A DNA stretch of 64,000 nt from Candidatus Omnitrophota bacterium. GTDB lineage: Bacteria; Omnitrophota; Omnitrophia; Omnitrophales; Aquincolibacteriaceae. How positions within the stretch are numbered: the stretch's first letter is position 1; each line of letters opens with the position of its first letter. This document shows positions 1,366 through 54,331 of the stretch, piece by piece. The notes beneath the pieces were generated by a model. That model did no database searches. It had not been told where the DNA came from and saw only the letters and a program-made list of their open reading frames with translations. Made by a program: the position numbers and the translations under genes. Location of the stretch: assembly GCA_043732705.1 (NCBI GenBank), contig JAYTHE010000025.1, forward strand, positions 315 through 64,314. Reading direction: 5' to 3'.

Positions 1366-1476
1366 TATCAAAAGGTGTTAGATGCTAGGCGAAAATGAGC
1401 GCCCGCGGAGGCGTAGTGGAAACCTACGCCGCACAAGGAAGCGAAATTTTCAACGACGCAGATGACGCCTTTTCAT
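1366..1476. repeat. Family-2 element of about 113 nt, copy 1. Candidate MITE or structured RNA.
   Basis: Core cgcccgcggaggcgtagtggaaacctacgccgcacaaggaag with flanking ttcaaaaag / ctttttca near-inverted termini. Shares this with copies at 1674, 17458 and 54187. Directly abuts the tRNA-Leu 3' end. Confidence 0.7.
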
Positions 1477-1488
1477 AAAAATCAAGAA

Positions 1489-1573
1489 TGCGAGAGGGGG
1501 GGGTCGAACCCCCACGCCTTTAGAGGGCGCTGGATTTTGAGTCCAGTGCGTCTGCCAGTTCCGCCACTCTCGC
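1489..1573 (-). tRNA. tRNA-Leu, anticodon CAA, type II with a long variable arm.
   Basis: GCGAGAGTGGCGGAACTGGCAGACGCACTGGACTCAAAATCCAGCGCCCTCTAAAGGCGTGGGGGTTCGACCCCCCCCTCTCGCA. Anticodon loop CTCAAAA, T-loop GTTCGACC. No CCA encoded. Confidence 0.85.
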
Positions 1574-1673
1574 AAGAAAAAATATTGTTACGCTACTCTA
1601 TTAAAGAGAGTTGGCGCCCTTCGTTCATGTGCGCTAGTCGCGCCATTCACTGCGGGCCGGCCACTCATTTTTT

Positions 1674-1783
1674 TTCAAAAAGTGCTGGATGCAAGGCGAA
1701 TGCAAACGACCGCGGAGGCGTAGTGAAACCTACGCCGCACAAGGAAGTGCAGTATTCAACGATGCAGACGGCGACTTTTCAAA
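1674..1783. repeat. Family-2 element, copy 2.
   Basis: gaccgcggaggcgtagtgaaacctacgccgcacaaggaag core. Ends 7 nt from the tRNA-Ala CCA end. Confidence 0.7.
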
Positions 1784-1790
1784 AAAAATT

Positions 1791-1866
1791 TGGTGGACCT
1801 GAGGAGAGTTGAACTCCTTACCCTCTGCATGCCATGCAGATGCTCTACCAAATGAGCTACAGGCCC
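1791..1866 (-). tRNA. tRNA-Ala, anticodon GGC.
   Basis: GGGCCTGTAGCTCATTTGGTAGAGCATCTGCATGGCATGCAGAGGGTAAGGAGTTCAACTCTCCTCAGGTCCACCA. G3:U70 alanine identity pair, anticodon loop ATGGCAT, CCA encoded. Confidence 0.9.
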
Positions 1867-2011
1867 AAGAAAGTGAATTGTGAATCGTGATTAGTGATTC
1901 GCATCAACTTTTTCTTATATATCAAACTGCTTTATCCCATTCGCGTGTCGAGTTGACTTTGTCAACTGCACGCCAAAAACAACTGTGCACCTGCTATCGC
2001 AGGATGCGGGC

Positions 2012-2028
2012 AAATGAGCTACAGGCCC
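2012..2028. repeat. 17-nt direct duplicate of the tRNA-Ala 5' end.
   Basis: aaatgagctacaggccc is identical to 1850-1866. Confidence 0.7.
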
Positions 2029-2129
2029 GAAAAATATTTAAAAGATCAGCCGGTGCAAGAGTGCAGCCGGAGACGAGGAGTCTAGTTGAAAAAATGATTT
2101 TTTCAAGAAGAACCCGATTTTCGAAAAGG

Positions 2130-2510
2130 TCACTCTTTAGCGAAAAGAGTATCAGGTTTAATGATGGCCCCTTCCTGATCCCCCGGTACAAAGCCGGTCA
2201 CTAAATCCCAAATACCCGCAGTACCGCGCATCAATGTCCGAACAATTCCATCCGTAAAACCCGCGACTTCGCGAATACCGGGCTGGCTTTTGTCTTCTTT
2301 GTGATACTTCATCACGGTGACCGGAATTTCTAATGGGCAAGTCACTAAGTTTGTAAGCCCACGCCCCCAATCATGCGCCAGATTTTTAAAATAGCCAGGC
2401 TGAGTGCGCGTATTGGTTCCAAACCTCGCATCATACTCTGCCTCCAAGGCAAAAGCCGGGAGTTGGGAGAAAATGAGTCCGATAAAAAACAGAGTTGCAA
2501 CTTTTTTCAT
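2130..2510 (-). CDS. Small secreted hypothetical protein. Likely start is at MKKVATLFF, with a signal peptide.
   Basis: The ORF gives MKKVATLFFIGLIFSQLPAFALEA followed by a soluble roughly 100-aa domain. No confident family call. Confidence 0.5.
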   Translation of the reverse strand: MKKVATLFFIGLIFSQLPAFALEAEYDARFGTNTRTQPGYFKNLAHDWGRGLTNLVTCPLEIPVTVMKYHKEDKSQPGIREVAGFTDGIVRTLMRGTAGIWDLVTGFVPGDQEGAIIKPDTLFAKE

Positions 2511-2722
2511 ATATTTTTCCTCATAATTTTTGACCAGGAATTGTATCAATCTTTAACCAAGACGACTACACCTAGATAAGTTTGAATAACTAAACCTGTT
2601 TTCTTTAAACCGGCCTAAATTCCTTATTAAAGTTTTAAGTGGGTCCGCCGAAACCTGTTATTACCTCGGAACCTTTCGGTTTCAAGTCAATATGCTGAGT
2701 CAAAATCAGCTAAGGAGCGACT

Positions 2723-2914
2723 GTGAAAGCAAATTATCAGTGTCAATCATGCAGCTACTCGGGCGACGAGGCCCATTTTGACACTAAAATTCTTTCTATC
2801 ATGTATCGCCCTAAGCATGACAATGTTCAGGCTTTTAAACAGATCAAATGTCCGCAATGCCATAATCTCGTGACCATTATCTTCGAAACACTTGACGGCA
2901 GCATCGCTAAGTAA
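2723..2914 (+). CDS. Putative small zinc-ribbon protein of 63 aa.
   Basis: Two CxxC pairs (CQSC...CPQC). It sits alone in an intergenic gap and is not well supported. Confidence 0.3.
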   Translation: MKANYQCQSCSYSGDEAHFDTKILSIMYRPKHDNVQAFKQIKCPQCHNLVTIIFETLDGSIAK

Positions 2915-2965
2915 TTTTTTGCTCTGAGCGCTTCGCGCACAACCGCCCAGCATCGCACCCAGCTT

Positions 2966-3748
2966 TTAAAACCTAAATTTTTCTTTTTCGAAAACTTTTC
3001 GCAAAGAATCAAGCTGGTTATAATCCGTCTGATCAATTGAAAGCGGCGTTAAAGCTGCCCAGCCTGAACGCATCAGTTCTTCATCGCTTGTTCCGTCAGG
3101 AGCAAGCAAGTGAATGCCGCCAGCGAGTTGATAGAGGCGGGTTTTACTCTCTTTTTCCAACTGACTAGGCTCAAAATGCAAAAACTCTTCGACGAAGCGC
3201 GAGTAGGCTTGTTTCGCCAATTTAAAACCTTTGATTTCGTTCAACGGAAGCGGTGGCACAGAAACGTTCAACAGTAACGGAACGATCCCTTCCCTTTTCC
3301 CAAAGTAATTCAACAATTTCGCTGTCAATTCCGTAGCAGGCTCGAAATCCTCAAATGTCTTACTGCAAAGCGATACGGCGAGCGACGGAATGCCATTAAT
3401 AACGCCTTCCCGCGCGGCGGCCACGGTTCCTGAATAATAAACGCTAATTCCGGTATTCGCTCCGCGGTTCACACCTGAAACAATCCAATCCGGTTTGAAC
3501 CCCGATTCGGTAACCGCCCATTTCACACAATCCGCAGGTGTTCCTTCAACTTCATAAATGGCTAAATTTTTCTGAATTTTTTCTTCACGCACTAAAATAC
3601 GCTCATGAATCGTCACGGAATGGCTTGTCGCGGAACGTTCCCGATGCGGCCCCGCCACTAGAATTTCATGATCCCGGCTCAGCCGCGCCACCAACTTTGT
3701 AAGTCCGGGCGCAAAAAGCCCATCATCGTTTGTAATGATAATTTTCAC
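2966..3748 (-). CDS. surE: 5'/3'-nucleotidase SurE.
   Basis: MKIIITNDDGLFAPGL...VAGPHRERSATSHSVT, the conserved SurE N-terminal signature. Confidence 0.85.
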   Translation of the reverse strand: MKIIITNDDGLFAPGLTKLVARLSRDHEILVAGPHRERSATSHSVTIHERILVREEKIQKNLAIYEVEGTPADCVKWAVTESGFKPDWIVSGVNRGANTGISVYYSGTVAAAREGVINGIPSLAVSLCSKTFEDFEPATELTAKLLNYFGKREGIVPLLLNVSVPPLPLNEIKGFKLAKQAYSRFVEEFLHFEPSQLEKESKTRLYQLAGGIHLLAPDGTSDEELMRSGWAALTPLSIDQTDYNQLDSLRKVFEKEKFRF

Positions 3749-4509
3749 GATATTTCTCCGAAATGAATAAGACGGATACTATGTTTTTCCAGCAGTTTTT
3801 TCAAGTATGGTAAAGAAAAAAGTGCATGTTCTTTTTCGCGTGGGACCGTCATAGAAGTTAAACCCTGCAACTCTTCATCCCAAATTCCGGGATGGCACAT
3901 CACCTCAGCCCTTCCGGGTAAAAGAGCGGCCAAGTTTTTTTCTAGCTTTTCGGCAGTCCAATAAGCATGCGCGTCCAAGTTGCCTAAAAGGGTCTGCGTT
4001 GTCACGAGTCCGGGATACTTTTTAAAAAAATCGGGCTCACGCATAAGGGCAGATCTTCGTATCGGAAGTTTTCTTTCGCGGGCAACATGCAAGATTGCCT
4101 GAAAAAAAACGGGCTCATCATGCATTTGATGATGTGTGTCCAGGTGTGTCGGCGTCCGTCCAAAATATTTCTCAAAAAGCGCGATTTGCCTGCCGTACTC
4201 CCGGACGAGATCGGAAAGCATCGGAGGCGATTTTAAATAATCTTTTTTCTTTTTAAAAAGCCGCGAATCATCAACCAGCGAAACAATATCACCGGGACTT
4301 GATACCGGAATACCCGATGTGACGTTCAAATGTAATCCTACGCCCAAACCGCTTTTTGCCACGCGTGAAACCATTTCCAAATCAGTCGGACGATTTACCA
4401 TCCAAGTCGTACTGCTGACAATTCCTGTTTCATGACATTCTAAAATAGCCCGAGTAACGCCGTTGGTTAAATTGCAATCATCCGCATTGACGATCAGTTC
4501 ACGCAGCAT
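3745..4509 (-). CDS. YdjC/ChbG-family carbohydrate deacetylase-like protein.
   Basis: MLRELIVNADDCNLTNGVTRAILECHETGIVSSTTWMVN fits the YdjC N-terminal pattern. The ATG at 4509 is preferred over the GTG at 4533. Overlaps surE by 4 nt. Confidence 0.6.
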   Translation of the reverse strand: MLRELIVNADDCNLTNGVTRAILECHETGIVSSTTWMVNRPTDLEMVSRVAKSGLGVGLHLNVTSGIPVSSPGDIVSLVDDSRLFKKKKDYLKSPPMLSDLVREYGRQIALFEKYFGRTPTHLDTHHQMHDEPVFFQAILHVARERKLPIRRSALMREPDFFKKYPGLVTTQTLLGNLDAHAYWTAEKLEKNLAALLPGRAEVMCHPGIWDEELQGLTSMTVPREKEHALFSLPYLKKLLEKHSIRLIHFGEIS

Positions 4510-4948
4510 TTTTTGCACCGGACGCCATCCCACGGGGAGGTGTTAGCTTTCTAACGCTTCCCCGTGGGACGGTGTCCGTTAAAGCAACCCAGGCGATTGC
4601 TTGTTTGCGTTCATGCGCGAGCGAAAGCAATAATGTTTGATTTCGTTTGATCCCTAATTCGCGGTTCAAATTTGGAGATAAAAGCAAGCAAGGCTTTCCG
4701 CTGCTCTTTTTTTTAATTTGAATTTGAAGCATTCGCTTGGCCCATTGCTTTGCGGGAATTCGAAAAAGGGCAAGACAAGCCTGCTTTGCGGCAATACGCG
4801 CGGCAGCCGGTTCGGCAAAATGGCGTTTTGATTTACAGTAACGAATTTCACCGGCGTTTAAAAAACGGGCAAGAAAATCGGGATGGGTTTCGGTCTTCTT
4901 TTTAACGGTAGAAACTGAAATTTGTACAATTTTCTGGCGCAAAATCAC
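4499..4948 (-). CDS. acpS: Holo-ACP synthase (4'-phosphopantetheinyl transferase), a divergent member. Possible GTG start.
   Basis: IVQISVSTVKKK...AARIAAKQACLALF...SLAHERKQAIAWVALTD aligns with the AcpS layout (EAxxKA and SLSHE-like motifs). The start codon is uncertain. Confidence 0.5.
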   Translation of the reverse strand: MILRQKIVQISVSTVKKKTETHPDFLARFLNAGEIRYCKSKRHFAEPAAARIAAKQACLALFRIPAKQWAKRMLQIQIKKKSSGKPCLLLSPNLNRELGIKRNQTLLLSLAHERKQAIAWVALTDTVPRGSVRKLTPPRGMASGAKNAA

Positions 4949-4958
4949 AAAGCAAGTT

Positions 4959-5270
4959 TTAAAGCGGGCTCAAATAACCACGCGTCAGCCAATACACTAA
5001 CCCTGCCGCGATCAAAATACCAATGATATAGAAATTATTAAATTTCCAAAAATCTCGCAACCGGCCCCAAACCGTATTTTGTTTGACGGGATTTTCACGG
5101 TTGGCAAAAACAGTTTCTTTGAGATGCAGAACGTCTTCTTTGCGAAAACGCAAATATTGTCCGCTAATTTTATAGGCCTGGAGCTTCCCGTTTTTGACGA
5201 ACGCATCCAAATCTTCGGAACTGATGCGTAAAAACTGGCGTGTCTCCTCAGGAGAAAGAAGGTTGTTCAT
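4959..5270 (-). CDS. Membrane-anchored protein with an N-terminal excisionase-family HTH.
   Basis: LLSPEETRQFLRISSEDLDAFVKNGKLQAYKISGQYLRFRKEDVLHL is HTH_17-like. C-terminal TM segment FYIIGILIAAGLVYWL. The start (5270 or 5306) is uncertain. Confidence 0.55.
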   Translation of the reverse strand: MNNLLSPEETRQFLRISSEDLDAFVKNGKLQAYKISGQYLRFRKEDVLHLKETVFANRENPVKQNTVWGRLRDFWKFNNFYIIGILIAAGLVYWLTRGYLSPL

Positions 5271-5334
5271 ACTTTTATACTTTTGTTCTGCACCGAAAAG
5301 CAACAACGCTTGCGATCAACCTGTAACTCCAAAA

Positions 5335-5847
5335 TTAAGCTTTTTGCTTTTGAAGCCAGCCATCTACTGCTGTTTTGGAAAAAACTGTGTTACCATTTTC
5401 GCGGCGCACAGGAATTTGATTGTTCTTAACAAGATCTTCCACAACGCGCGATTCAAGATCAAGATATTGTGCAACATCCCGTAAAGTCAGAGAAACATCT
5501 TGTCCTGAAATTGCGGAGGCTTTCATGGTCACATGTCCCTCAATCACGGCGCCTTCCCCGACCGAAAGACGCGGGGTCACAATGTCGCCTTCAATGGAAG
5601 CGGGAGAAACAACAGAGAGACTTTGCAAAGCGGTTATATTTCCGACAACCTTTCCGGCAATAATAATATTATCACCATGAATACTGGCGCGAACCTTCGC
5701 GTTTTCACCGATAGTCAGTGTGCCGCGAGTATCAAGTTTACCTTCAAAAGTACCATTGATGCGTAAATTGACAGGATCTTTAAATGTGATCGTGCCTTGC
5801 ATGCTTGCGTCGACATCGAGAATTTTTTCTTCGATTTTTTTTGCCAT
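5335..5847 (-). CDS. Bactofilin-family protein fused to a C-terminal excisionase-type HTH.
   Basis: Bactofilin beta-helical repeats (GTFEGKLDTRGTLTIGENAKVRASIHGDNIIIAGKVVGNI...). C-terminus LTLRDVAQYLDLESRVVEDLVKNNQIPVRRENGNTVFSKTAVDGWL is HTH_17-like. Confidence 0.7.
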   Translation of the reverse strand: MAKKIEEKILDVDASMQGTITFKDPVNLRINGTFEGKLDTRGTLTIGENAKVRASIHGDNIIIAGKVVGNITALQSLSVVSPASIEGDIVTPRLSVGEGAVIEGHVTMKASAISGQDVSLTLRDVAQYLDLESRVVEDLVKNNQIPVRRENGNTVFSKTAVDGWLQKQKA

Positions 5848-5922
5848 GAATTTTTTCCCCTCACTTTAAGAAACCCTGCGAATCCGTCCCTACTAATGGA
5901 TAGCGGATTATACTCGGGGACC

Positions 5923-6609
5923 ATGACCTCGGACAAGAAATGCTTGAATCTTTTTCCGACCCTCGCTATGCTTCCCACCATGATTGAGATATTGAAAGAA
6001 TTTTTCTCGCAGCTTCACCACCTCCCCGAGCTGATCCGTTGGGGCGGATATACCGTCTTATTCGTGATCATCTTCGCGGAAACAGGCCTTCTAGCGGGCT
6101 TTTTCCTGCCCGGCGACTCATTGCTCGTAACCGCCGGACTTGTTTGCGCCTTGGACGGGCAAATGAAAATCGAAATTCTCTTGGCATTGCTATCCGCAGC
6201 GGCAATTCTTGGCGACAGCACAGGTTACGCGATTGGAAGGTTTCTCGGGCCCCGACTTTTTAGCAAACCCAACTCCTTTTTCTTCCGCAAAAGCCATCTT
6301 GAAAAAACGCATGCTTTTTATGAGAAGCATGGCCCCAAGACAATCATTCTCGCCCGTTTCGTCCCAATTATCCGTACTTTTGCTCCGACAGTAGCGGGTG
6401 TGGGCGGAATGAGCTACGGAAAGTTCCTGACCTATAACGTTTTGGGTGGAATTTTGTGGGTTATCAGCATGACTTCCATCGGTTATTTTCTCGCCCGCAC
6501 CATCCCCGGCATTGAAAAAAAGATCCACTATGTTATTTTGATCGTGATCTTTCTTTCAATCCTCCCGATTGTGAAAGAAGTTTGGTCCGCTCGCAAAAAG
6601 AAAAGTTAG
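5923..6609 (+). CDS. DedA/VTT-family membrane protein.
   Basis: GYTVLFVIIFAETGLLAGFFLPGDSLLVTAGL...ILARFVPIIRTFAPTVAGVGGMSY. The start (5896, 5923 or 5968) is uncertain. The ORF 5' end overlaps the bactofilin gene. Confidence 0.75.
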   Translation: MTSDKKCLNLFPTLAMLPTMIEILKEFFSQLHHLPELIRWGGYTVLFVIIFAETGLLAGFFLPGDSLLVTAGLVCALDGQMKIEILLALLSAAAILGDSTGYAIGRFLGPRLFSKPNSFFFRKSHLEKTHAFYEKHGPKTIILARFVPIIRTFAPTVAGVGGMSYGKFLTYNVLGGILWVISMTSIGYFLARTIPGIEKKIHYVILIVIFLSILPIVKEVWSARKKKS

Positions 6610-6684
6610 TTTTCTTTTCCGCCCAAGTTATTCCCTAAAACTTTATTTAAGAGTAGAATTAAACCTCGTCTAAACGGAGGTCTT

Positions 6685-7239
6685 ATGAATAAAATATTTT
6701 TTTCTTTTCTGCTTTGTTTGATCCTTTTTGTTTCCGGCTGCGCGCACAAAAAAACAATTATTCTTCCGGAGGAAGACGCTGTCTTTAGCTGGGTTCAATC
6801 TACACAACCCGATTCAGCCATGACAGGCAAAGCCACTCTTTGGCGCCTGGACAATGCGGTCAAAATTCGCGTGGTCGTTACCGGCGCAACCCCCGGCTTG
6901 CATGGAATCCATATCCATGAAATCGGTGATTGTAGTGATCATGGCAATGCCGCGGGCAGTCATTTTAACCCCGACAAAGTTCAACATGGCAATGTTATCA
7001 AGGATGGAATGAAACACGCCCATCCGGGTGATCTTGGAAACATTAAAGTGGATTCCACCGGCATGGGCTCAATTGAAGTGATTGTCCCGGGCTTAACTTT
7101 GGATAAAGGCCCTTACGGAATTGCGAATCGCTCGATTGTCATTCATGAAAAGGTGGATGATTTTGGCCAGCCTACCGGTAATGCCGGCGGACGCGTTGCC
7201 TGTGCGGTGATTCCCAATCCCTTAAAGTGTGACTGCTAA
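6685..7239 (+). CDS. sodC: Cu/Zn superoxide dismutase, lipoprotein.
   Basis: Lipobox LFVSGC. GLHGIHIHEIGDC...GNAGGRVACAVI are SodC copper and zinc ligand motifs. Confidence 0.85.
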   Translation: MNKIFFSFLLCLILFVSGCAHKKTIILPEEDAVFSWVQSTQPDSAMTGKATLWRLDNAVKIRVVVTGATPGLHGIHIHEIGDCSDHGNAAGSHFNPDKVQHGNVIKDGMKHAHPGDLGNIKVDSTGMGSIEVIVPGLTLDKGPYGIANRSIVIHEKVDDFGQPTGNAGGRVACAVIPNPLKCDC

Positions 7240-7249
7240 CTTTTAGAGG

Positions 7250-16129: not shown

Positions 16130-17434
16130 TCATTTCATTTTTGCCGGCTCGGAAGAAACAATCCGGGGCTCGGGAAGCGGCACAATAAATTTCGTTCCCC
16201 GGCTCTCTAGATGGCCGAGTTTACCGATAATTTCTTTGGCAAAATTCCACGCAAAAATCAAAACATAGTCGGCAGGGCTTGCCTCAAGCCGCGTACTTGG
16301 AACAATCGGGATACCGCTGGTTGCGCTATCAGGCGCAGAAGCAAAATAAGTTGGTACAAGACGCCCCTGCTTAAGAGGATTATCGTCCACGATACTTTCG
16401 ATTTCTTTGGCCGTCAATCCGCAAAAATTAATAATGGTTGTCGCTTTGGCGGGCGCGCCATAACCGCAAATCGTTTTACCTTCCGCGCGGATTTTACCGA
16501 TCAATGAATTAAGCGTTTGCTTAAAATCCATCACGCGCGCGGCAAATTTTTCATAAACCGCATTTTCCAAACATCCCTTGCTCTTTTCAAGAGCAAGCAA
16601 TTCTCCTACAACCGGCCGAATCACAAAGGAGCTTTTTTGTTTGGATATAAAAACGCGCAAGGAGCCGCCATGCGAACTGACTTTTTGAATATCAAAGATA
16701 TGCGCCCCATATCTCTGCATTAAAAAACTGAGTGACGTGATTCCGATATAAGAGACATGCTCATGATAAATCATGTCAAAAAGCATTTCATCGAGCATCG
16801 TCACGAGATAAGGAAATTCAATCACAAAAAAACCTTCATCATCGAGCAGATTAAAAACATTTTTGCAGACGGATTGGATGTCATCGATATGCGCGAAAAC
16901 ATTATTAGCGCTGATCGCATGCGCTTTGCCGTACTTTTGAATAATTTCCTTAACGCAAACTTCATCAAAATAACGGTTCAATGTCGGGCGTCCTTCGGCA
17001 TTAGCTTGTTTTGCTAAATTATCCGCCGGGTCAACGCCCACCGCCTTCATACCTTCGTTCATGTAGCAGGCAACTAAAAGGCCGTCGTTACTGCCGATAT
17101 CCACCGCCACGGGATTTTTAACATGCGCCAGCTTGCTTTTGACCGTACGCGCGTACTCCGCGAAATGCTCACGGAAAGTTTTGGTGGTGGAACTGACATA
17201 GAGATAATCTTTAAACATCAAATCGGCCGGAACCGCGTGCGCAAGTTGAACTAAATGGCAATGTTGGCATTTCACGAGTTGAAGCGGACAGGTAAAAAGA
17301 GGTTTATTTAAATCTTCGGGGCGCGGCAGTGAATTCGCAAGCGGATGCTTTTCGCCCAAATCCAAAAATGGTTTCCCGAGCGCAGAATCACAATAGCGGC
17401 ATGTTGTTTTTTTATACTGATCTGTCATTTTCAA
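16130..17434 (-). CDS. Sugar C-methyltransferase (NDP-hexose C-methyltransferase type): Zn-binding N-domain, SAM methyltransferase domain and C-terminal domain.
   Basis: CRYCDSALGKPFLDLGEKHPLANS...LFTCPLQLVKCQHCHLVQL is a Zn-finger N-domain. VDIGSNDGLLVACY is a SAM motif. 434 aa. Confidence 0.7.
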   Translation of the reverse strand: MKMTDQYKKTTCRYCDSALGKPFLDLGEKHPLANSLPRPEDLNKPLFTCPLQLVKCQHCHLVQLAHAVPADLMFKDYLYVSSTTKTFREHFAEYARTVKSKLAHVKNPVAVDIGSNDGLLVACYMNEGMKAVGVDPADNLAKQANAEGRPTLNRYFDEVCVKEIIQKYGKAHAISANNVFAHIDDIQSVCKNVFNLLDDEGFFVIEFPYLVTMLDEMLFDMIYHEHVSYIGITSLSFLMQRYGAHIFDIQKVSSHGGSLRVFISKQKSSFVIRPVVGELLALEKSKGCLENAVYEKFAARVMDFKQTLNSLIGKIRAEGKTICGYGAPAKATTIINFCGLTAKEIESIVDDNPLKQGRLVPTYFASAPDSATSGIPIVPSTRLEASPADYVLIFAWNFAKEIIGKLGHLESRGTKFIVPLPEPRIVSSEPAKMK

Positions 17435-17457
17435 CTTATCTTTATATTTTGTTTAAC

Positions 17458-17570
17458 CGTTCAAAAAGGGTTAGATGCGAGGCGCAAGCAAACGCCCGCG
17501 GAGGCGTAGAAGAACCTACGCCGCACAAGGAAGAGTAGCCTGCAACGAAGCAGATGACCTTTTTCAACGG
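17458..17570. repeat. Family-2 element, copy 3, between the C-methyltransferase and SDR genes.
   Basis: ccgttcaaaaagggttagatgcgaggcgcaagcaaacgcccgcggaggcgtagaagaacctacgccgcacaaggaag...gcagatgacctttttcaacgg. Confidence 0.7.
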
Positions 17571-18302
17571 TTAACTATTTGGTGGAACAATAATTTGGGT
17601 AATTTTTCCGTGCCTAATCACAATATGACTCGCCGTCAAAACCGGAATTTCTTCGTTCAAGATCTGCAGCATTTTACCGGCGACAAAGGCCGCTGTTTGC
17701 TGGCGCGCGGCATCCGCTTTGCCGAATAAATCAGAACGCATTTTGGTATTCATGCCTCCCGGACAAATAGTGACCACTTTGAGCCACTCAAGATTTTCTT
17801 TCGCGAGCGCTTCGGTCATCGCCAAAACTCCGAACTTGCTCGCGGAATAGCCCGCAATGCGCGGTACGGCGCGCACACCAGCCATGGACGAAACATTCAT
17901 CACAAGCGGTTGTTTGCTTTTTTTCAAAAATGGAAATGCCGCGCGGCACATCAAAAACACTGAAAATAAATTCCCGCGTAAATGCGCTTCGAATTCTTCG
18001 GGGGCCGTATCTTCAATCCGCTCCAGTTTACCGCCGTAAGCGGCGCTGTTCACGAGCAAATCAATTTTTGGCGTGCTTTTTTTTATCTCATGAAAGAGGC
18101 CTGCGACGGAATTAACGGAAGAAACATTAGCCTCGATCAACCGGAAATTTTTGGAAGGAATTTTTTTTCTGGCGGCGGACCAATGCTCGCTCGTACGGCT
18201 AACTCCAAAAACCTGCCAGCCGCTTTCAATCAAACGTTTGGAAAGCTCAAGCCCAAGTCCCCGTGAAGCTCCGGTAATCAGCGCAAACTTGCCGCTTGCC
18301 AT
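17571..18302 (-). CDS. SDR-family oxidoreductase.
   Basis: ALITGASRGLGLELSKRL...NSAAYGG...YSASKFGVLAMTEAL matches the TGxxxGxG and YxxxK SDR motifs. Confidence 0.8.
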   Translation of the reverse strand: MASGKFALITGASRGLGLELSKRLIESGWQVFGVSRTSEHWSAARKKIPSKNFRLIEANVSSVNSVAGLFHEIKKSTPKIDLLVNSAAYGGKLERIEDTAPEEFEAHLRGNLFSVFLMCRAAFPFLKKSKQPLVMNVSSMAGVRAVPRIAGYSASKFGVLAMTEALAKENLEWLKVVTICPGGMNTKMRSDLFGKADAARQQTAAFVAGKMLQILNEEIPVLTASHIVIRHGKITQIIVPPNS

Positions 18303-18722: not shown

Positions 18723-18765
18723 TTTTACTCCTGTTTTGAGTCGTGTGTCGTGAGTCTTGAGAAAA

Positions 18766-19119
18766 TCACAATTTTTTGACCAATGTTTGAATCATTTTGC
18801 ACAAATATTCGATTTCAGTCATAACAAGCTGATAATCAGAGACATTTAAATAGTTTTGCCGCTTACATATTTCAATTTGCGTTTCAACTTCACCGCTTGA
18901 GCCAAGTGCGATGCTCAGAAAATTCCTGTACTCTTTCCTATGCTTGCGTCTAAAACCTTCGGCTATATTACTTGGAATTGAAACTGCGGCACGACGTAAC
19001 TGCGATATTAAATTAAAATTTTCATGTGAAGGAAATTTTTCTGTGACTTTATAAATAAGATCAACTACGTCCATTGCCTTTTGCCAAATCCGTAAATCGC
19101 GAAACGATTGAATGCTCAA
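18766..19119 (-). CDS. Four-helix-bundle protein (TIGR02436, 23S rRNA intervening-sequence protein family).
   Basis: FRDLRIWQKAMDVVDLIYKVTEKFP...QLRRAAVSIPSNIAEGF. Confidence 0.75.
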   Translation of the reverse strand: MSIQSFRDLRIWQKAMDVVDLIYKVTEKFPSHENFNLISQLRRAAVSIPSNIAEGFRRKHRKEYRNFLSIALGSSGEVETQIEICKRQNYLNVSDYQLVMTEIEYLCKMIQTLVKKL

Positions 19120-19136
19120 GACTCATCCCTCCCGAC

Positions 19137-20198
19137 TCACGACTTCTCTTGAAACCAGGTGATCGTGCGCTTCAATCCCGTATCAAGATCATATTTAGGT
19201 TTAAAGCCGGTGATTTTTGTAATTTTTGAAATATCCGGACAGCGGCGCTTCGGATCGCTGTTTGCATACACTTCATGCGGCGGATCGATGTTGACGATGT
19301 CCACCTTAAACGGCATGTTCTGCACAACCTTCTTAGCGAGTTCTTTAACCGAAATTTCAGGATCGGGATTACCGATATTAAAAGGTTCGCCGTTTTCTTC
19401 ACAAAAGAGCACCCGGAAAATACCTTCAATTTGATCGTTGATATAACAGAAAGAGCGGGTATTGCGGCCCTCACCATGAATCGGCAGCGGCTCCTTGCGT
19501 AAAGCATGCTCAATAAAGTTCGGCAGCACGCGGTAATCATCGGGACGAATACCGGGACCGTAAACGTTGAAAGGCCGCACCATTTTGGCCGGAACACCGT
19601 AAACTTTCCAATAAGCTTCGCACATGGTTTCACCGAAGCGCTTCGATTCATCGTAACAAGCGCGGGCGCCTAAAACCGAGACATTACCGCGATAACCTTC
19701 TGCGGTCGGAACATGTTTGGGATCGGGATCGCCATAAACTTCGCTGGAACTCATAAAAACAAAGCTCTTCACCTCTTTCGCACGCGCGAGATCAAGCATC
19801 TGGCGTGTGCCGACAGTGCCGACATCCATGGTTTCAATCGGAAACTTGGTGTAATAGGCGGGCGATGCAATGCCTGCGGCATGAATAATATAGTCAATTT
19901 TTTCATCCGTCTTAAAAGGCTCAATGACGTTATGCTTAATAAATTTGATATTTTGGTCGGAAATAATTTCCTGCTCATAACCGGTAATAAAGTTGTCGAG
20001 TAAAATAGCTTTAAGGGGTTCGGTTAAAACGCGTTCGTTCAGATGCTTGAGGAGCAGAACCACATACTTCCCGAGAAAACCACCCGCGCCCGTCAGCAGA
20101 AAAGTCTTACCGGAAAAAAACTTGTGGTGATCTTTTAAAGATTTGGCGAGCAGCTCAATATCTTCCTGAATGATTTTGGACTTAATCGATCGCTTCAT
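19137..20198 (-). CDS. NAD-dependent epimerase/dehydratase, UDP-glucuronate decarboxylase (UXS)-like.
   Basis: FLLTGAGGFLGKYVV...YDESKRFGETMCEAY. Rossmann GxxGxxG motif and YxxxK catalytic dyad. Confidence 0.7.
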   Translation of the reverse strand: MKRSIKSKIIQEDIELLAKSLKDHHKFFSGKTFLLTGAGGFLGKYVVLLLKHLNERVLTEPLKAILLDNFITGYEQEIISDQNIKFIKHNVIEPFKTDEKIDYIIHAAGIASPAYYTKFPIETMDVGTVGTRQMLDLARAKEVKSFVFMSSSEVYGDPDPKHVPTAEGYRGNVSVLGARACYDESKRFGETMCEAYWKVYGVPAKMVRPFNVYGPGIRPDDYRVLPNFIEHALRKEPLPIHGEGRNTRSFCYINDQIEGIFRVLFCEENGEPFNIGNPDPEISVKELAKKVVQNMPFKVDIVNIDPPHEVYANSDPKRRCPDISKITKITGFKPKYDLDTGLKRTITWFQEKS

Positions 20199-47785: not shown

Positions 47786-47826
47786 TGTTTGCACGAATTT
47801 CATCCCAGAAACGCGAAGCGTTATCA

Positions 47827-47864
47827 GGGATCCAGAACTGGATCCCCGCCTGCGCGGGGATGAC
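47827..47864. repeat. Family-1 palindromic element, copy D (half element), 12 nt upstream of the sdhB ATG.
   Basis: gggatccagaactggatccccgcctgcgcggggatgac. Confidence 0.7.
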
Positions 47865-47876
47865 AAGGTTGAAAAT

Positions 47877-48641: not shown

Positions 48642-48691
48642 GCCTCGCCACGACTTATTTTTCAGCAGACTCGGCACAGCGCTGAGTATTG

Positions 48692-48717
48692 TTTTAAATG
48701 ACGACTCGTCATTTAAA
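48692..48717. terminator. Bidirectional terminator candidate between convergent sdhB and the CPXCG gene. Also part of the family-3 motif.
   Basis: ttttaaatgacg-act-cgtcatttaaa is a perfect 11-bp inverted repeat, preceded by cacagcgctgag (48676-48687). Confidence 0.5.
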
Positions 48718-48730
48718 TCTTCAAGAAGCG

Positions 48731-48919
48731 CTAGTCGCTAGCCTCAGCTGAAAAGCTGGAAATTTCGTCGTCTTCGAATTCGACGGTGATTTGAATCGGG
48801 CGGCAGCAGGTTTCACAATCTTGAATAAATCTTTGGAAACTTCCGCCTGTAATATCGAGGCGCGCGTTGAGTTCAACGCCGCAATGTGGGCACGAAAAAG
48901 CGTAGTCTGGTTCGACCAT
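48731..48919 (-). CDS. CPXCG-motif cysteine-rich small protein of 62 aa.
   Basis: MVEPDYAFSCPHCGVELNARLDITGGSFQRFIQDCETCCRPIQITVEF. ATG at 48917-48919, abutting the arfB stop. Confidence 0.6.
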   Translation of the reverse strand: MVEPDYAFSCPHCGVELNARLDITGGSFQRFIQDCETCCRPIQITVEFEDDEISSFSAEASD

Positions 48920-48920
48920 G

Positions 48921-49331
48921 TCAGTCTCCGAAGGGTCTAGAACGCATTTTCTTTTTTTGACCCTGATGCTTTTTTGCATCCAGCATCTTATTCTTTGCAC
49001 GTTTAGACCGTTTCTGTTTTTGCTTCTTAATTTTAAAAATACGCTTAGCTTCGGAACTTTGCTCACCAAGAATCTGCGTTTCGATTTTTTGAACGAGCAA
49101 AACACGCGCAAAGTAACGGTTCATCGCCTGTGAGCGTGTTTCCTGGCATTTCACAATCAAGCCTGTTGGATGATATTTAAGCATCACGCAAGTCGAAACT
49201 TTATTCACATGCTGGCCGCCTGCCCCGCCCGAACGTGCGAAGATTTCTTCGATATCATTTTCACGAATACCGAACTTTTCCATCTTTTGCTTAAGCGCAT
49301 CAACCTTGGCTTGGGAAACTAAAAAACTCAT
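48921..49331 (-). CDS. arfB: Alternative ribosome-rescue factor ArfB (peptidyl-tRNA hydrolase, RF-1 domain).
   Basis: GGQ motif in [19 protein letters not shown]. Basic C-terminal tail [16 protein letters not shown]. Confidence 0.85.
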
Positions 49332-49354
49332 GGAGGCATTCTACTTGCACAGCA

Positions 49355-49851
49355 CTAAGGATGAAACCCAATTTTAGGTTTGGGTTTTTCTTCTTGGGCA
49401 ACCATTTTCCGAATCACTTCAAAGACCGCTTGAAATTGCCCGTCGTATTTTCCTTCCATCTCCCTCAATTTTTTCAAAATTACTTCATGGCTGCGAATCA
49501 TCTCCCTTAGCCGGGTAAAAGTCCGCATGATTTGGATATTCACCTGTATCGCCTGTTTGGATCGAAGAACGCTCGAGAGCATGGCAACTCCATTTTCGGT
49601 AAAAACATAGGGCAAATAGCGTCTTCCTCATATTTCAAACTTGAGGTTGCAAATTGCAACCTCAAGTTTTCCATTTCTTTTTCAGTTAACCGAAACATAA
49701 AGTCATCGGGAAAGCGGTCTTTATTACGGCGAACCGCTAAGTTCACATATTTTGTCTCAACGCCATAAAGGGCAGAGAGATCATGATCCAACATAACTTT
49801 CTTGCCTTGTATCAGGTAGATTTTACTCTCGATAATATCCAAGTCTTTCAT
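49355..49851 (-). pseudogene. ORF6N (KilA-N-related) domain gene disrupted by a frameshift near 49615-49640.
   Basis: N-terminal frame IYLIQGKKVMLDHDLSALYGVETKYVNLAVRRNKDRFPDDFMFRLTEKEMENLRLQFATSS. The other frame continues [37 protein letters not shown]. The family consensus runs ...SQFVTSSWGGRRYLPY... across the break. Confidence 0.6.
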
Positions 49852-49934
49852 ATTTAAATTTATTATATATCATATTTTAATGAAATAAAAGCATAATCCC
49901 TGAGGTCACAAATTGCGCCCTCAAGTTAGAATCG

Positions 49935-51794
49935 TTAAGAAAAAAGTTGCCTTAGGGAAGGTTCGGATTGGCTCAGGAAATCTACTTTGCGGGCAACTTC
50001 AGAGTTTTCAATAAGCGGCGGTGCATGATGCGGCTTAAGACGCGCATCCAAGATTACCGGGCCGACACAGCCCCAATGTTTGAATTGCGTGAATTCGCCC
50101 AAACCATAAATATCATGCGAAGGATTAGAACGAGTAAAAGTGGCCCACAGAAAATTATCCGTATTTTTTGCCACAAAATCGGCGTCATCGCAAAGAACAA
50201 TCAGCGGAAATTCTTTTACAGGTTCGTTGTGATCAATCTGCGCAATGACAGCCAAAATTTCATTACGCGCCTTTTCATAACTGTGAAACTTTGTCATTTG
50301 AACCGCTAAAATACCCGGCATCACGAAGCGCATTTCGCCTAAATTAGGATCGGCTGCGGGAGCTTTTTCAGGCAATTTACGAATCAGCTCCCCCGCGGCA
50401 GCAATGACAACTTTAGAACCTTGATTCAGGCCTGTTCCCGAATAATCCAAAGTATCAATCGTCGTCATAGTTTGAAAATGTAAATCTTTGCGCGGATCGA
50501 AACGCTCCAAAATATGTTTAAAAAAAGCGGGAATGTCATGCGTATCTAATTTTAAATCATCTTCACTCGCGGACAGAAAAATAAATTTCGCAAGTGACAG
50601 CGGGCCATATCCCAGAATCGCATTCGCTAATTGCAGCAGCTCCTGTGGCTTGCGCTTTTGATACGGCGCATAGCGCTCACTGCCGATGGCCAATAAAAGC
50701 GGGTGGACGCCGGCGGCATCAACCGCATTCACTTCTTTAACGCCCGGGATCACACTTTGAATCACGGTACCGGCCATATCATGAATTAATTTTCCGAATT
50801 GGGAATCTTCCTGCGGCGGGCGGCCCACCACCGTAAACGGCCAAACCGCGTCTTTGCGGTGATAAACTTTGTGAACTTTCATAAACGGAAAATCATGCTT
50901 CAATGAGTAATATCCCAAATGATCGCCGAATGGCCCTTCGGATTTCAGCGCTTTCGGATCGACTGTACCTGTGATACAAAAATCAGCATCAACTGAAATG
51001 ACAAAACCATCACGGATCGCATAACGAAAACCCCGTCCATTCAATGCACCCGCAAATAAAACTTCGGGAATACCTTCCGGACAATACATCACTGCGGCAA
51101 AAGCATGCGAAGGTGGGCCTCCGACAAAGATGCTTACCTTAAGCGGTTCGCCGCGTTCGAGCGCGGCTTGGTGATGTATGCCAATATCGCGGCGAATTTG
51201 ATAATGCAAACCGATTTCTTTGTTGGGCTCGTATTCGTTACCAGAAAGTTGAATGCGGTACATTCCCAGATTGGAATTCATAATGCCGGGCTTATTTTGA
51301 TTTTCGGTATAGACCTGCGGCAAAAGAATAAATGCCCCACCGTCTTTTTCCCAACAGCGGATTTGAGGCAGTTGATCGATTGTCGTTTCACATTCGAGGC
51401 ATGGCCCGTGCAAAACTTTTTGCGGTAATGCCGAAAGCGCAAAAAGCGGCATATCTAACAAATAGCGAAGAGGGCTTTTAAAGAAGTTTTTGGAATCTGC
51501 TTTCAATTCAAAGGCTTTCTTAACCCGCGTCCAAGTACCGCGAAAAAGAAATTGCGTGCGTTCTTCCGTACCGTAAAGATTCGAAACACATGGAAACGGC
51601 GAACCTTTGACCTTCTCAAACAAAATCGCTGGGCCGCCCAATTGAGCAGTTACATTTTTTCCGCTGCCGCCGGAACGGATACGTCGATGAATTTCCGCCA
51701 TTTCCAAATCCGGATCGACTTCCTGTTTAATCCGGATCAGCTGCCCGTTTTTTTCAAGATCATCCAAACATGCGCGCAGCGAAGAGTAATGCAT
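49935..51794 (-). CDS. UbiD-family decarboxylase with a C-terminal extension.
   Basis: MHYSSLRACLDDLEKNGQLIRIKQEVDPDLEMAEIHRRI...GGPAILFEKVKG is a canonical UbiD N-terminus. 619 aa. Confidence 0.8.
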   Translation of the reverse strand: MHYSSLRACLDDLEKNGQLIRIKQEVDPDLEMAEIHRRIRSGGSGKNVTAQLGGPAILFEKVKGSPFPCVSNLYGTEERTQFLFRGTWTRVKKAFELKADSKNFFKSPLRYLLDMPLFALSALPQKVLHGPCLECETTIDQLPQIRCWEKDGGAFILLPQVYTENQNKPGIMNSNLGMYRIQLSGNEYEPNKEIGLHYQIRRDIGIHHQAALERGEPLKVSIFVGGPPSHAFAAVMYCPEGIPEVLFAGALNGRGFRYAIRDGFVISVDADFCITGTVDPKALKSEGPFGDHLGYYSLKHDFPFMKVHKVYHRKDAVWPFTVVGRPPQEDSQFGKLIHDMAGTVIQSVIPGVKEVNAVDAAGVHPLLLAIGSERYAPYQKRKPQELLQLANAILGYGPLSLAKFIFLSASEDDLKLDTHDIPAFFKHILERFDPRKDLHFQTMTTIDTLDYSGTGLNQGSKVVIAAAGELIRKLPEKAPAADPNLGEMRFVMPGILAVQMTKFHSYEKARNEILAVIAQIDHNEPVKEFPLIVLCDDADFVAKNTDNFLWATFTRSNPSHDIYGLGEFTQFKHWGCVGPVILDARLKPHHAPPLIENSEVARKVDFLSQSEPSLRQLFS

Positions 51795-51797
51795 GTT

Positions 51798-52481
51798 TTA
51801 CTTTTTCTTTTCGATCTCTTTAACTTTCTCGAGGCTGATTCTGCGTAAAGGGCAATATGGCTTGTCCTTCCATTGGTTTTTGAGAAAAGATTTACGGCCG
51901 GAGCCCATGCTGTACATGTTGTAATGTGTGGCGTTTTTCTTGTAATAGTCTTGATGGTATTCTTCCGCGCGCGTCCAATTCTTCAAAGGCTGAACATCCA
52001 CCGTGATGGGCGATTTAAAGATTTTGCTTTCATTTAAAATCTTCTTGGATTCAGCCGCGATCATTTTTTCTTCGTCATTCTGAAAAAAAATCGCGGATAA
52101 ATACTGCGGACCATGATCGGCGAATTGGCCGCCTGCCTGCGTGGGATTGATCGTTGTCCAATAAACATTCAGCAAGTCTTCATACGTCACTTTTGCGGGG
52201 GCATAAATGACTTCAATCGCTTCATAAGCTCCGGTATTACCCTCCGAAACCTGGTCATAGTTCGGATTCGGAACTTTGGAGTTGGCATAACCGGAATCAA
52301 CGCTGATCACGCCCGCAGTTTTTTCAAACGGCGCTTCCATGCACCAGAAACATCCGCCCGCGAAATAAGCTTTTTGAGTATTCGCCACAACCGGCTCCTT
52401 TGTTCTTTTAAAATAAATCTGTGCCGATAGATACCCCGGCAGCAAAACCATCAATCCCAAAATCAGAAATAATTTTTTCAT
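51798..52481 (-). CDS. msrA: Peptide methionine sulfoxide reductase MsrA, secreted form.
   Basis: Signal peptide. GGCFWCMEAPFEK active-site motif. Confidence 0.85.
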   Translation of the reverse strand: MKKLFLILGLMVLLPGYLSAQIYFKRTKEPVVANTQKAYFAGGCFWCMEAPFEKTAGVISVDSGYANSKVPNPNYDQVSEGNTGAYEAIEVIYAPAKVTYEDLLNVYWTTINPTQAGGQFADHGPQYLSAIFFQNDEEKMIAAESKKILNESKIFKSPITVDVQPLKNWTRAEEYHQDYYKKNATHYNMYSMGSGRKSFLKNQWKDKPYCPLRRISLEKVKEIEKKK

Positions 52482-52789
52482 TAATAAGTTTTTCCGTGCA
52501 GTTTCTCACGTGTTTTATTAAACGACATTTTCCATTCAATTTGCTTTTCAAGGTCAATTCCCAATCCGCCGCACATATCAAATAGACGAATGGCAGTATC
52601 AGCTAATTCATCTTCAAACGTATCTTTTTGGCCGGTGCCGAATTTTCCGTGGCGATGCGCTTCAATTGCTTCACCAAGCTCAGATGTGATCAGCATGAGC
52701 ATTTCGCCAACATTGCGGTCTTTTTCCCAAAAGCCCTTGGCTTTGGCATTTCCGTGACATTGATTAATCCATTCAGTAATACTAGGCAT
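52481..52789 (-). CDS. Small MazG-like nucleotide pyrophosphohydrolase.
   Basis: EWINQCHGNAKAKGFWE...MLITSELGEAIEAHRHGK...DELADTAIRLFD. GGAGG RBS before the ATG at 52789. Confidence 0.65.
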   Translation of the reverse strand: MPSITEWINQCHGNAKAKGFWEKDRNVGEMLMLITSELGEAIEAHRHGKFGTGQKDTFEDELADTAIRLFDMCGGLGIDLEKQIEWKMSFNKTREKLHGKTY

Positions 52790-52911
52790 GAAACCTCCAT
52801 AAAAAAAGACCATAGACAATCGACTATGGACTATAAACTTAAAGAAAATAACTAAAGATGTGGCTATAGTCTATGGTCAATTGTCTATAGTCGGCAACAC
52901 GATTATTGCGG

Positions 52912-54150
52912 CTATTCAAGCAGGGAGTAGAAATTGGAGACAGCGGGATCGGCAAAGATCGAGGAAGGCGTCCAACCGGACAAAGTCAGCCCCTGCTTGG
53001 TACGGACGCGGCTCAATGCTACATAAGCCTGTCCGGGCTCCCAAAGCGACCTTAAATCCACATGCGCACGGTCCAGGGTCGCCCCCTGAATTTTATGAAT
53101 CGTGGAGGCATAAGCGAGGTTCACGGGAAAATTCATGGCATGCGCGACTTCATCGCCTTCCGCATTATGAATCGAAAAACCAAAGGTCGTGACTTCGATT
53201 TGTTCGCCGTCGACTTCAACCGCCAAACTCTCTTCCGAAAAATCAACGACTTTGCCGACCGTACCGTTTACAAACCGCTGTTTGGGGTCATTAATGCGAA
53301 ACATTACAAGCGCGCCTTTTTTTAATTCGAGAACTTCTGGAATGGGCGCGTCTTTTTTAATTTGAGTGAGATACGGCTCTGCACCCAAATATTCTGTAGG
53401 AAAGGATTGCGAATCACTCGTGAGGCGTTTGAGGCAAATTAGATTATATTTTTCGGTTTGCTCACGGCGCGGAAAAAGGCGCGGCACACCGTCTTCCACC
53501 TCTTCATCAGAAATAACGAGCGAATCCAGAAAATCTTTGACCTCAAGATCCAATTTTCCAATGCGAATCTTATTCAGCACTTCCAAAAACGAGCTGTCTT
53601 TCGTACGGACTTGATCCTTCAAAACACAAATTTGAAAATCCGAACGCTGCCAGGCGGGAGAATCAAAGCACCAGCGTTTTTCCTGTCCGCGCGAAATCGG
53701 CGGCAGCTGCGCAAAATCCCCTACGGCCACGACACGAATACCGCCCCAGGGCGCGTTATTTTTTCTTACAATGCGCGCGACTTGCTCGGCACAATCAAGC
53801 GCATCGGCGGGAATCATGGAAACTTCGTCGATGACGATACAATCGCACTTTTTGATGCGTTTTTTAACGCGCGCGTTGGACGCGGCTTTTTCTAAAATCG
53901 CGGCCACGGGGCCTTGCATAATTCCGAGGCCAAAAAAACTGTGGAAGGTTCGTCCGCCAATCACAATCGCCGCGGCACCCGTCGAAGCAAGAATATCAAT
54001 CGCTACGGGAGATTCATTGAAAAAACGCCGGATAAGAAAACTTTTTCCCGTACCGGGGCCGCCGGTGAGAAAAACATTGCGTGCGGAATTGAGCAATGAC
54101 TCCCATGCAATTGTTTGCGAGCCAGTTAGCTCAATTTTTTTAGAAGTCAT
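52912..54150 (-). CDS. Pif1/RecD-like SF1 DNA helicase.
   Basis: Walker A FLTGGPGTGKSF. Walker B IVIDEVSMI. VAVGDFAQLPP. C-terminal YASTIHKIQGATLD and ALSRVRT. Confidence 0.8.
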   Translation of the reverse strand: MTSKKIELTGSQTIAWESLLNSARNVFLTGGPGTGKSFLIRRFFNESPVAIDILASTGAAAIVIGGRTFHSFFGLGIMQGPVAAILEKAASNARVKKRIKKCDCIVIDEVSMIPADALDCAEQVARIVRKNNAPWGGIRVVAVGDFAQLPPISRGQEKRWCFDSPAWQRSDFQICVLKDQVRTKDSSFLEVLNKIRIGKLDLEVKDFLDSLVISDEEVEDGVPRLFPRREQTEKYNLICLKRLTSDSQSFPTEYLGAEPYLTQIKKDAPIPEVLELKKGALVMFRINDPKQRFVNGTVGKVVDFSEESLAVEVDGEQIEVTTFGFSIHNAEGDEVAHAMNFPVNLAYASTIHKIQGATLDRAHVDLRSLWEPGQAYVALSRVRTKQGLTLSGWTPSSIFADPAVSNFYSLLE

Positions 54151-54186
54151 GCGATTTTTTTGAGCTCATATACTTTTTCCCATGTT

Positions 54187-54331
54187 CGTTCAAAAAGCTT
54201 TAGATGCAAGGCGCAAACAAGTGCCCGCGGAGGCGTAGTAAAACCTACGCCTCACAAGCTGCAAATCGTTTGGCGATTTGCTAAAGCAAATCACTGGCAG
54301 TTTGCAACGCAGCAGATGAAACTTTTTCAAC
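54187..54331. repeat. Family-2 element, copy 4, with a roughly 35-nt internal insertion carrying a hairpin.
   Basis: cgttcaaaaagctttagatgcaaggcgcaaacaagtgcccgcggaggcgtagtaaaacctacgcctcacaag...gcagatgaaactttttcaacg. Insert gcaaatcg-tttgg-cgatttgc. Confidence 0.65.

Follow-up and report, generated by a model that had tools for sequence, protein, structure and literature searches.

Rod-shaped hairpin elements with a conserved tip behind gene 3' ends: a REP/MITE-like family in Omnitrophota and other bacterial phyla

Most of what is known of interspersed hairpin repeats such as REP, ERIC and Correia comes from a few lineages of Proteobacteria, each type being specific to its lineage. REPs are 20–40 nt long with GTAG (or CGTC) at one terminus, and a REPIN consists of two inverted REPs with conserved arms. 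They are non-coding, multi-copy and extragenic, lie mostly downstream of open reading frames (ORFs), between tandem or convergent genes, and are handled as single-stranded hairpins, without target duplication, by an enzyme encoded elsewhere, the RAYT (TnpA-REP), a Y1 HUH transposase whose gene typically has REPs on either side. REP ends sometimes supply or touch a stop codon (TAG) (PMC3733652). Bacterial miniature inverted-repeat transposable elements, or MITEs (Correia/NEMIS, ERIC, RUP, Nezha, Chunjie), are 100–200 bp long, have inverted termini, form a long hairpin and lack an ORF; they insert in or next to operons and show presence/absence polymorphism. They conserve their terminal inverted repeats (TIRs) and leave fixed duplications. 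Integron attC sites (57–141 nt) are imperfect palindromes with conserved mismatches, in which structure is kept over sequence; each begins immediately behind the stop codon of the ORF before it, and has its folded strand antisense to that ORF. Here we describe an element, the rod element, which resembles all three. Four copies lie in a stretch of 64,000 nucleotides (the window) from contig JAYTHE010000025.1 of a Candidatus Omnitrophota bacterium (assembly GCA_043732705.1, positions 315 to 64,314). They are members of a large family of non-coding elements without an entry in Rfam, a new cross-phylum member of the REP/MITE kind with a conserved tip, a single-strand signature and placement at gene ends.

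The original prediction had described four co-oriented repeats in gaps between minus-strand genes, and had proposed either a mobile miniature element or a family of processed small RNAs or terminator modules. Sequence reading and alignment place the four copies where they had been reported, all on the + strand and all with flanking genes on the − strand. The tRNA-Leu and tRNA-Ala genes named as neighbours were recovered by ARAGORN and Rfam, with their 3' ends 1–4 nt from an element, and the extra internal hairpin ascribed to copy 4 is present (Table 1). The reported boxes and inverted ends also reappear in the alignment: the copies have in common GATGCnAGGCG and CAACGnnGCAGA, ends TCAAAAAG...CTTTTTCA, and an invariant block made up of CCGCGGAGGCGTAG, then 6–7 nt, then CCTACGCC-g/t-CACAAG. 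Copy 4 has TCACAAG in place of GCACAAG. A covariance model, the check which had been suggested, was built from three of the copies and used to scan the 64 kb with filters off; it matched exactly four copies, the next-best matches being only the reverse strands of the same four sites (20–23 bits). The core pattern has 6 matches in the window against 0.04 expected by chance. The copies fold far more stably than shuffled sequence (z-scores from −4.6 to −8); copy 1 has a minimum free energy (MFE) of −51.5 kcal/mol and a z-score of −7.1.

The family extends well beyond the window. When one genome per species was scanned for CGCGGAGGCGTAG-N4-8-CTACGCC, the tip CGCGGAGGCGTAG-loop-CTACGCCGCACAAG came to light at no fewer than 120 loci across eight or more phylum-level groups. 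Among the matches listed, the carriers are mostly Geobacteraceae or Desulfuromonadales, with others in Acidobacteriota, Polyangiaceae, Planctomycetia, Omnitrophota (Omnitrophica), Gemmatimonadota, Nitrospirae and Desulfobacterales; the nearest copies listed belong to Omnitrophica, Planctomycetia and unclassified metagenome-assembled genomes (MAGs). The core is followed by GCACAAG in almost every match listed, though this heptamer is absent from the search pattern, and in each listed match the core is the tip of a 110–170 nt hairpin whose arms vary by lineage. Searches of the compared loci with the covariance model of the window yielded 116, 28 and 1 copies, some of them lacking the exact core, and up to five copies occur within 8 kb. 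The many copies in the same and in other phyla set aside the concern, voiced with the original prediction, that the repeat might be confined to this stretch. The Rfam search which it had proposed gave no family matching the element: Rfam 15 at gathering threshold, run over the window and 14 loci of all sub-types, returned only tRNAs and one unrelated c-di-GMP-I riboswitch, and a permissive E-value of up to 10 added nothing relevant to the element. A likeness to signal recognition particle (SRP) 4.5S RNA (GCAGAUGACGC) was dismissed, as Rfam gave no SRP match. Three sub-types searched by blastn against plasmid and phage collections gave no match, nor did a scan of viral contigs for the core pattern, and the core sequence was not found in the papers searched, including the text supplements of Geobacteraceae genome papers.

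Each element is an imperfect palindrome of 110–150 nt which folds into a rod, its arms pairing end to end. The rod ends in a hairpin of 7–8 bp, GGCGTAG-loop-CTACGCC, which is bordered by an asymmetric internal loop (CGCGGA / GCACAAG). Across the family there is next to no variation in GGCGTA/TACGCC or in the CGCGGA / GCACAAG beside it, whereas the termini are the least conserved part of the element; a 34-nt tip sequence is common to Geobacter, myxobacteria, Acidobacteriota, Planctomycetia, Omnitrophota, Gemmatimonadota and Nitrospirae. In an alignment of 116 sequences 90.6% of the cells are paired, compared with 60.5% after shuffling and 35–46% when the partner columns are slid. Compensatory changes, by which the hairpin was to be judged, are massive, with both sides altered at 33 of the 39 pairs. 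Even the top of the apical stem covaries, occurring as GTAG/CTAC, GTAC/GTAC and GTAT/ATAC. Certain mismatches are conserved: one is a C.C close to the base, another the tandem G.A of AGAT/AGAT. Loop lengths of 4–8 nt break any reading frame; a conserved reading frame is therefore excluded, and on its sequence the element is to be regarded as non-coding. Among 685 ORFs from 120 loci the only recurrent neighbouring protein families were housekeeping ones, in keeping with an element that is not autonomous. Extra hairpins, mutually unrelated, are found at the same position 3' of the core in copy 4 and at three other loci (L077, L078 and L094), and the 38-nt hairpin of copy 4 is missing from its ortholog at locus L129. 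The outer stems of the window copies differ, that of copy 1 being GATTTTTAT/ATAAAAATC and that of copy 2 a T-run/A-run.

Related structures were encountered at several of the compared loci. In the argB–argD spacer of a Geobacteraceae MAG (L126, 1374-1525), a post-stop hairpin has the outer arm of the Geobacter sub-type, GGAACGCGAATTTTTCCCAATCCCGGCGTTGG, with a different G/C-rich palindrome inside it in place of the conserved core, which suggests that arms and tip may be exchangeable modules. An argF–argG spacer (L125, 4250-4501) contains an unrelated, near-perfect palindrome of ~200 nt with an MFE of −116 kcal/mol, and Geobacter intercistronic spacers host several distinct families of long-hairpin repeats. 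At L073 (3261-3360 and upstream) the 3' half of the element (3' side of the core and 3' arm) is tandemly duplicated without a matching 5' arm, and looks like a product of rearrangement.

Since an inverted repeat in duplex DNA would covary as well, the frequencies of G.T and A.C in paired positions were compared. On the core strand the ratio of G.T to A.C is 168:29 in folds forbidding G.U, 246:86 on the alignment, 111:29 among 43 representatives of <75% identity (with an excess of G.U at 23 pairs against 4) and 9:2 in the window-like subset. In 102 of 122 copies, moreover, MFE favours the core strand. Deamination bias acts on the G-rich, non-transcribed strand, and would yield G.T on the strand opposite. 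The + strand of the window is C-rich throughout and is also the transcribed strand, so that the G.T asymmetry runs against what mutation bias would give and therefore reflects selection for single-strand folding of the core strand. Across the family the element strand is C-rich in 63–67% of loci, a figure inseparable from gene orientation. On these counts the core strand folds as a single strand, RNA and DNA being alike compatible with the data.

The element is placed with precision at gene ends. Oriented by its core, the element has an opposite-strand gene on its 3' side about 73% of the time. The stop codon of that gene falls at −5 to +12 of the element 3' end in 58 of 94 cases, most often at −1/0; the element 5' end has no comparable stop-codon peak. 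The stop codons at the 3' side are TAG (43), TAA (27) and TGA (24). The element also abuts five different tRNAs, at −3 to +4 nt. Two of them, Leu and Ala, belong to the window, where copy 1 lies 3–4 nt from the tRNA-Leu 3' end and copy 2 lies 1–2 nt from the 3' end (CCA) of tRNA-Ala; the others, Gly, Lys and Ser, are found elsewhere. In the arg operon of Geobacter sp. AOG1 (L058) five genes each have an element 0 nt past the native stop, all antisense, and the same post-stop antisense arrangement occurs at nif genes (nifH, nifD) and groEL. Neighbouring genes are convergent in 30 cases and tandem in 35. Operon copies leave 28–58 nt to the next start codon, and from their location it follows that the gene-sense transcript must read through the element. 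This transcript carries a weaker version of the hairpin, in which C.A mismatches replace G.U pairs; averaged over the copies, the gene-sense strand has a folding energy of about −58 kcal/mol. The Geobacter operon sub-type has no 3' U-run after the stem on either strand, no sigma-70-type promoter or terminator consensus was found at any window copy, and in the consensus scan the element ends lacked the short G+C-rich stem and direct U-run of an intrinsic terminator.

Comparison of orthologous sites shows that copies are gained or lost between relatives. The copy 3 site, between an SDR gene and a methyltransferase gene, is empty at three loci (L121, L122 and L124) from relatives with 71–84% protein identity, where the spacer is 40–54 nt; in the closest of these empty sites TTAA occurs once, at the stop codon. 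Copy 3 in the window stands between two TTAA (17453-17456 and 17571-17574), of which the right-hand one includes the TAA stop of the SDR gene. Copy 4, which is flanked by CATG on both sides, has an orthologous element at L129 (120.6 bits; flanks CATG/CATA). The same site is empty at L130 and L131, where only 2 nt separate the NlpC stop from the PIF1 start, or the two overlap; the gene pair being tightly coupled in relatives without the element, insertion of copy 4 broke the coupling of the NlpC/P60 gene to that of the PIF1-like SF1 helicase. The empty site holds a single CATG. The idea that the element had entered the loop of an older palindrome, by which the copy-specific outer stems would be explained, was rejected for copy 4 on this ground, CATG being all that the empty site contains. 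A further copy, in sense orientation, is present at L122, on the same contig as L129, at a site empty in the window and at L121. All five arg sites of Geobacter sp. AOG1 are empty in G. pickeringii and Geotalea uraniireducens.

Two further observations concern these sites. At the arg operon of Geobacter sp. AOG1 (L058, 4792-4848 and 6130-6187) there are 40–50 nt of extra A+T-rich sequence between the element 5' end and the next ribosome-binding site, the matching spacers in the empty species (L127, L128) being only 10–31 nt; copy 4 and the element at L129 likewise have extra sequence on their 5' side, 32 nt and 12 nt respectively. In the window, a 117-aa ORF (18766-19119, within 18745-19140, − strand) is flanked by perfect 10-bp inverted repeats, GAGTCTTGAG / CTCAAGACTC, and inserted between an epimerase gene and a 139-aa gene; we take its product, from sequence alone, to resemble the four-helix-bundle '23S rRNA intervening-sequence' proteins. 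The corresponding spacer is 32 nt and empty at L121 and holds a rod element at L122, and from these varied contents the spacer is an insertion hot spot. No gene similar to the four-helix-bundle gene was found in 1 Mb of other loci.

Although the element has much in common with described systems, it could be equated with none of them. Like REPs it consists of hairpins with GTAG/CTAC, but here GTAG/CTAC stands at the top of an apical stem, where it covaries to GTAC and GTAT, and a single asymmetric tip is conserved with the arms left free. Its spread over many phyla likewise contrasts with the lineage-specific REP classes. By size (110–150 nt), lack of an ORF and paired arms it conforms to the definition of a MITE (<300 bp, no ORF, terminal inverted repeats), yet its termini are variable, its centre invariant and its orientation biased, and it leaves no general duplications. 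Chunjie, a MITE of Geobacter uraniireducens, is A+T-rich, 178–235 bp long, and has 21-bp TIRs and 9-bp direct repeats; it was rejected as the same element on grounds of its greater length, its composition and its direct repeats. Identity with attC was also rejected, the R''/R' consensus (RYYYAAC...GTTRRRY) not occurring in the attC arrangement: GTTAGAT is present at the 5' side of the folding strand in one sub-type only, the window type having a reversed, partial order and the Geobacter types none. The centre of attC is variable where that of the rod element is invariant, attC sites stand in arrays of promoterless cassettes next to intI whereas the rod element occurs behind tRNAs and among the housekeeping genes of operons (arg, nif, groEL), and no integrase was seen at element loci. 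The two do share a geometry, in that each follows a stop codon and folds on the antisense strand. In large chromosomal integrons the folded attC strand is reported to lie on the leading-strand template, and the folded strand in the window does likewise. The PATEs derived from IS200/IS605 are similarly without general duplication; they have two different subterminal hairpins and insert 3' of a fixed tetra- or pentanucleotide, a description which does not fit an element with one central hairpin and gene-side flanks of TAA, TAG, TGA or a tRNA end. MRSC-65-2, a single long covarying stem with dozens of copies per genome in many phyla, has been proposed as a selfish element possibly acting as DNA (PMC11109978). 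It is defined by a UYCCGG sequence repeat which the rod element lacks, and was rejected as a different element; the rod core sequence was not found in PMC11109978 or its supplement. Narunsky et al. 2024 left 250 candidates unnamed, and the rod element could be one of these.

We favour mobilisation in trans via a folded single strand, in view of the strand signature, of the bias in orientation and of the evidence against a staggered-cut transposase. The family is thus probably best read as a REP/MITE-like non-autonomous element which transposes as a folded strand, its tip being read by a putative trans-acting enzyme. We have moderate confidence that transposition would proceed through the folded single strand, and not through cut-and-paste by a DDE transposase binding the termini. 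The apical tip would be the constrained part, presumably as the handle for an enzyme encoded elsewhere, while the long arms would need only to stay paired and could drift by compensatory changes. The folded strand would be handled as are REP/REPIN by RAYT, the ends of IS200/IS605 or integron attC sites, and the element would land in a preferred orientation directly behind a gene 3' end (stop codon or tRNA end), with the folding strand antisense to that gene. Once inserted, it would give the gene-sense transcript a strong post-cistron hairpin, which may be a 3' decay barrier. REPs of E. coli have been shown to act as such barriers.

Several observations weigh against this interpretation. TTAA at copy 3 and CATG at copy 4 stand on both sides of the element and only once in the empty sites, and a sub-family in MAG MFD05684, a 200-nt composite with 19-bp TIRs, has clean 5-bp duplications (AACTA, ACCTA, AGCTA and AAATA); both count against it because a DDE transposase would leave such marks. 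About a quarter of the copies, including that at L122 on the contig of L129, are in the other orientation. Copy 3 folds worse on the + strand (−48.6 against −54.4 kcal/mol), and the folding strand in the window is the leading-strand template, the opposite of the rule for IS200/IS605. A tblastn search of 1 Mb of loci with an approximate IS200 TnpA query gave no match and no RAYT near the copies; the test is a weak one, as a trans-acting gene need not be near.

The main rival, which we regard as unlikely although it deserves to be taken seriously, is an ordinary MITE: an internally deleted insertion sequence (IS) whose TIRs are bound by a DDE transposase making short staggered cuts, so that the rod would be two long TIRs and the apparent covariation would be both ends co-evolving with the transposase. 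Besides the flanking tetranucleotides and the MFD05684 duplications, TAA/TAA or TAG/TAG flanks at some copies in Geobacter sp. AOG1 speak for it, and size, absence of an ORF and mobility are all compatible. However, TTAA and CATG are palindromes, equally able just to lengthen the stem, and target-site duplications show no family-wide excess over controls in three designs (MFE hairpin boundaries, in-register versus shifted register, and identity of the outermost pair). Recognition of TIRs predicts conserved ends and a free centre, the reverse of a centre invariant across phyla with termini least conserved. Nor does double-stranded recognition predict a 4–6 fold excess of G.T over A.C, and the strong bias in orientation and towards gene ends is a further point against it. 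The IS with the same termini which the original prediction proposed to look for was not found in 1 Mb of loci or in the plasmid, phage and viral collections; solo half-cores marking a full-length parent are likewise missing from the 1 Mb, and the 20 ORFs of the window include no transposase. Of the 'mobile miniature element' of the original prediction, mobility is upheld by presence and absence at orthologous sites, while the ordinary MITE is disfavoured by the variable termini, the missing IS and the lack of general duplications. At one locus (L075; element 1457-1578, − strand) the element is flanked by a direct repeat of ~22 bp (CACG-AGATAGTCCTTGACACAC); in no other member of the family was a long duplication seen at the flanks.

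Transcription has also been considered as the basis of the family. Structured RNAs made from the core strand, whether antisense small RNAs (sRNAs) over gene 3' ends or protein-binding RNAs whose spread is secondary, would account for the very strong covariation with use of G.U on one strand, the conserved internal loops and tandem G.A, and an expansion hairpin of variable length at one fixed position, as in many RNAs. The tip invariant across phyla suggests a conserved binding partner, and A/T-rich sequence with −10-like hexamers precedes several copies of the window type. We nevertheless hold this to be quite improbable. An independent RNA gene is unlikely because there is no promoter or terminator consensus, because copies lie antisense inside tight housekeeping operons, just before the next start, and because sites turn over rapidly between close relatives; nor does Rfam offer a match even at the permissive threshold. 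Alternatively, the host may have selected a 3'-end module which, in RNA of the gene-sense strand, blocks decay between cistrons or terminates transcription in both directions and thereby tunes operon stoichiometry. Such tuning is known from the E. coli REPs in malEFG. A start of the hairpin 0–5 nt past a stop codon or tRNA end, its occurrence after groEL, nifH, nifD, arg genes and tRNAs, the enrichment of convergent genes and the A-run/T-run bases of window-type copies on both strands all agree with such a role, as does the fact that the gene-sense strand still folds. But that strand is the worse folder, the abundant Geobacter sub-type lacks a U-run in either direction and lies inside operons needing read-through, a terminator consensus was not found, and neither the invariant tip nor the strand asymmetry would be explained. 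As the primary function we consider it very unlikely; as a side effect, a barrier to decay or termination in both directions is plausible. The 'processed small RNA or terminator module' of the original prediction has accordingly gained no direct support, for want of a promoter or terminator consensus and an Rfam family and with the better-folding strand antisense to operons.

A bolder extension of the folded-strand reading, to which we assign only a slight chance, is that the element is a substrate of single-strand-specific recombination which places it at gene 3' boundaries in many phyla, the tip being read on the folded antisense strand. If this were true, it would amount to a general 'gene-end tagging' with the geometry of attC sites behind integron cassettes, and could bear on how genes acquire attC-like recombination sites. 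More broadly, a tip shared across phyla, hundreds of compensatory changes in the arms, the strand signature and the precise placement point to a conserved partner protein and to strand-specific insertion, neither of which has to our knowledge been described for such an element. In bacteria that are important in the environment and for the most part uncultured, the elements fill many intergenic spacers, and as long as they are not modelled they will mislead predictions of sRNAs, terminators and operons.

Table 1. Copies of the rod element in the window and the genes beside them
Feature	Position	Strand	Evidence or remark
Copy 1	1359-1484 (conserved part 1366-1476, apical core 1404-1437)	+	covariance model 131.3 bits
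Copy 2	1669-1789 (core 1711-1743)	+	covariance model 136.7 bits
Copy 3	17457-17570 (core 17497-17529)	+	covariance model 134.6 bits
Copy 4	54187-54334 (core 54226-54258)	+	covariance model 40-54 bits
Extra hairpin of copy 4	54259-54296 (38 nt)	+	inserted just 3' of the core, directly after CACAAG
tRNA-Leu(CAA)	1488-1574	-	ARAGORN and Rfam; 3' end abuts copy 1 3' end
tRNA-Ala(GGC)	1791-1866	-	ARAGORN and Rfam; 3' end abuts copy 2 3' end
Methyltransferase gene	16130-17434	-	downstream gene at copy 3
SDR gene	17571-18302	-	stop codon within right TTAA of copy 3
PIF1-like helicase gene	52912-54150	-	start faces copy 4
NlpC/P60-SH3 gene	54339-55724	-	stop faces copy 4

Two features of the window lie apart from the element. 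Three tandem GGAGACC heptamers (ccggagaccggagaccggagac) occupy ~1248-1270, in the gap upstream of copy 1. A third of the window is filled by one unbroken ORF of 7,555 codons (22.7 kb; 22028-44695, − strand).

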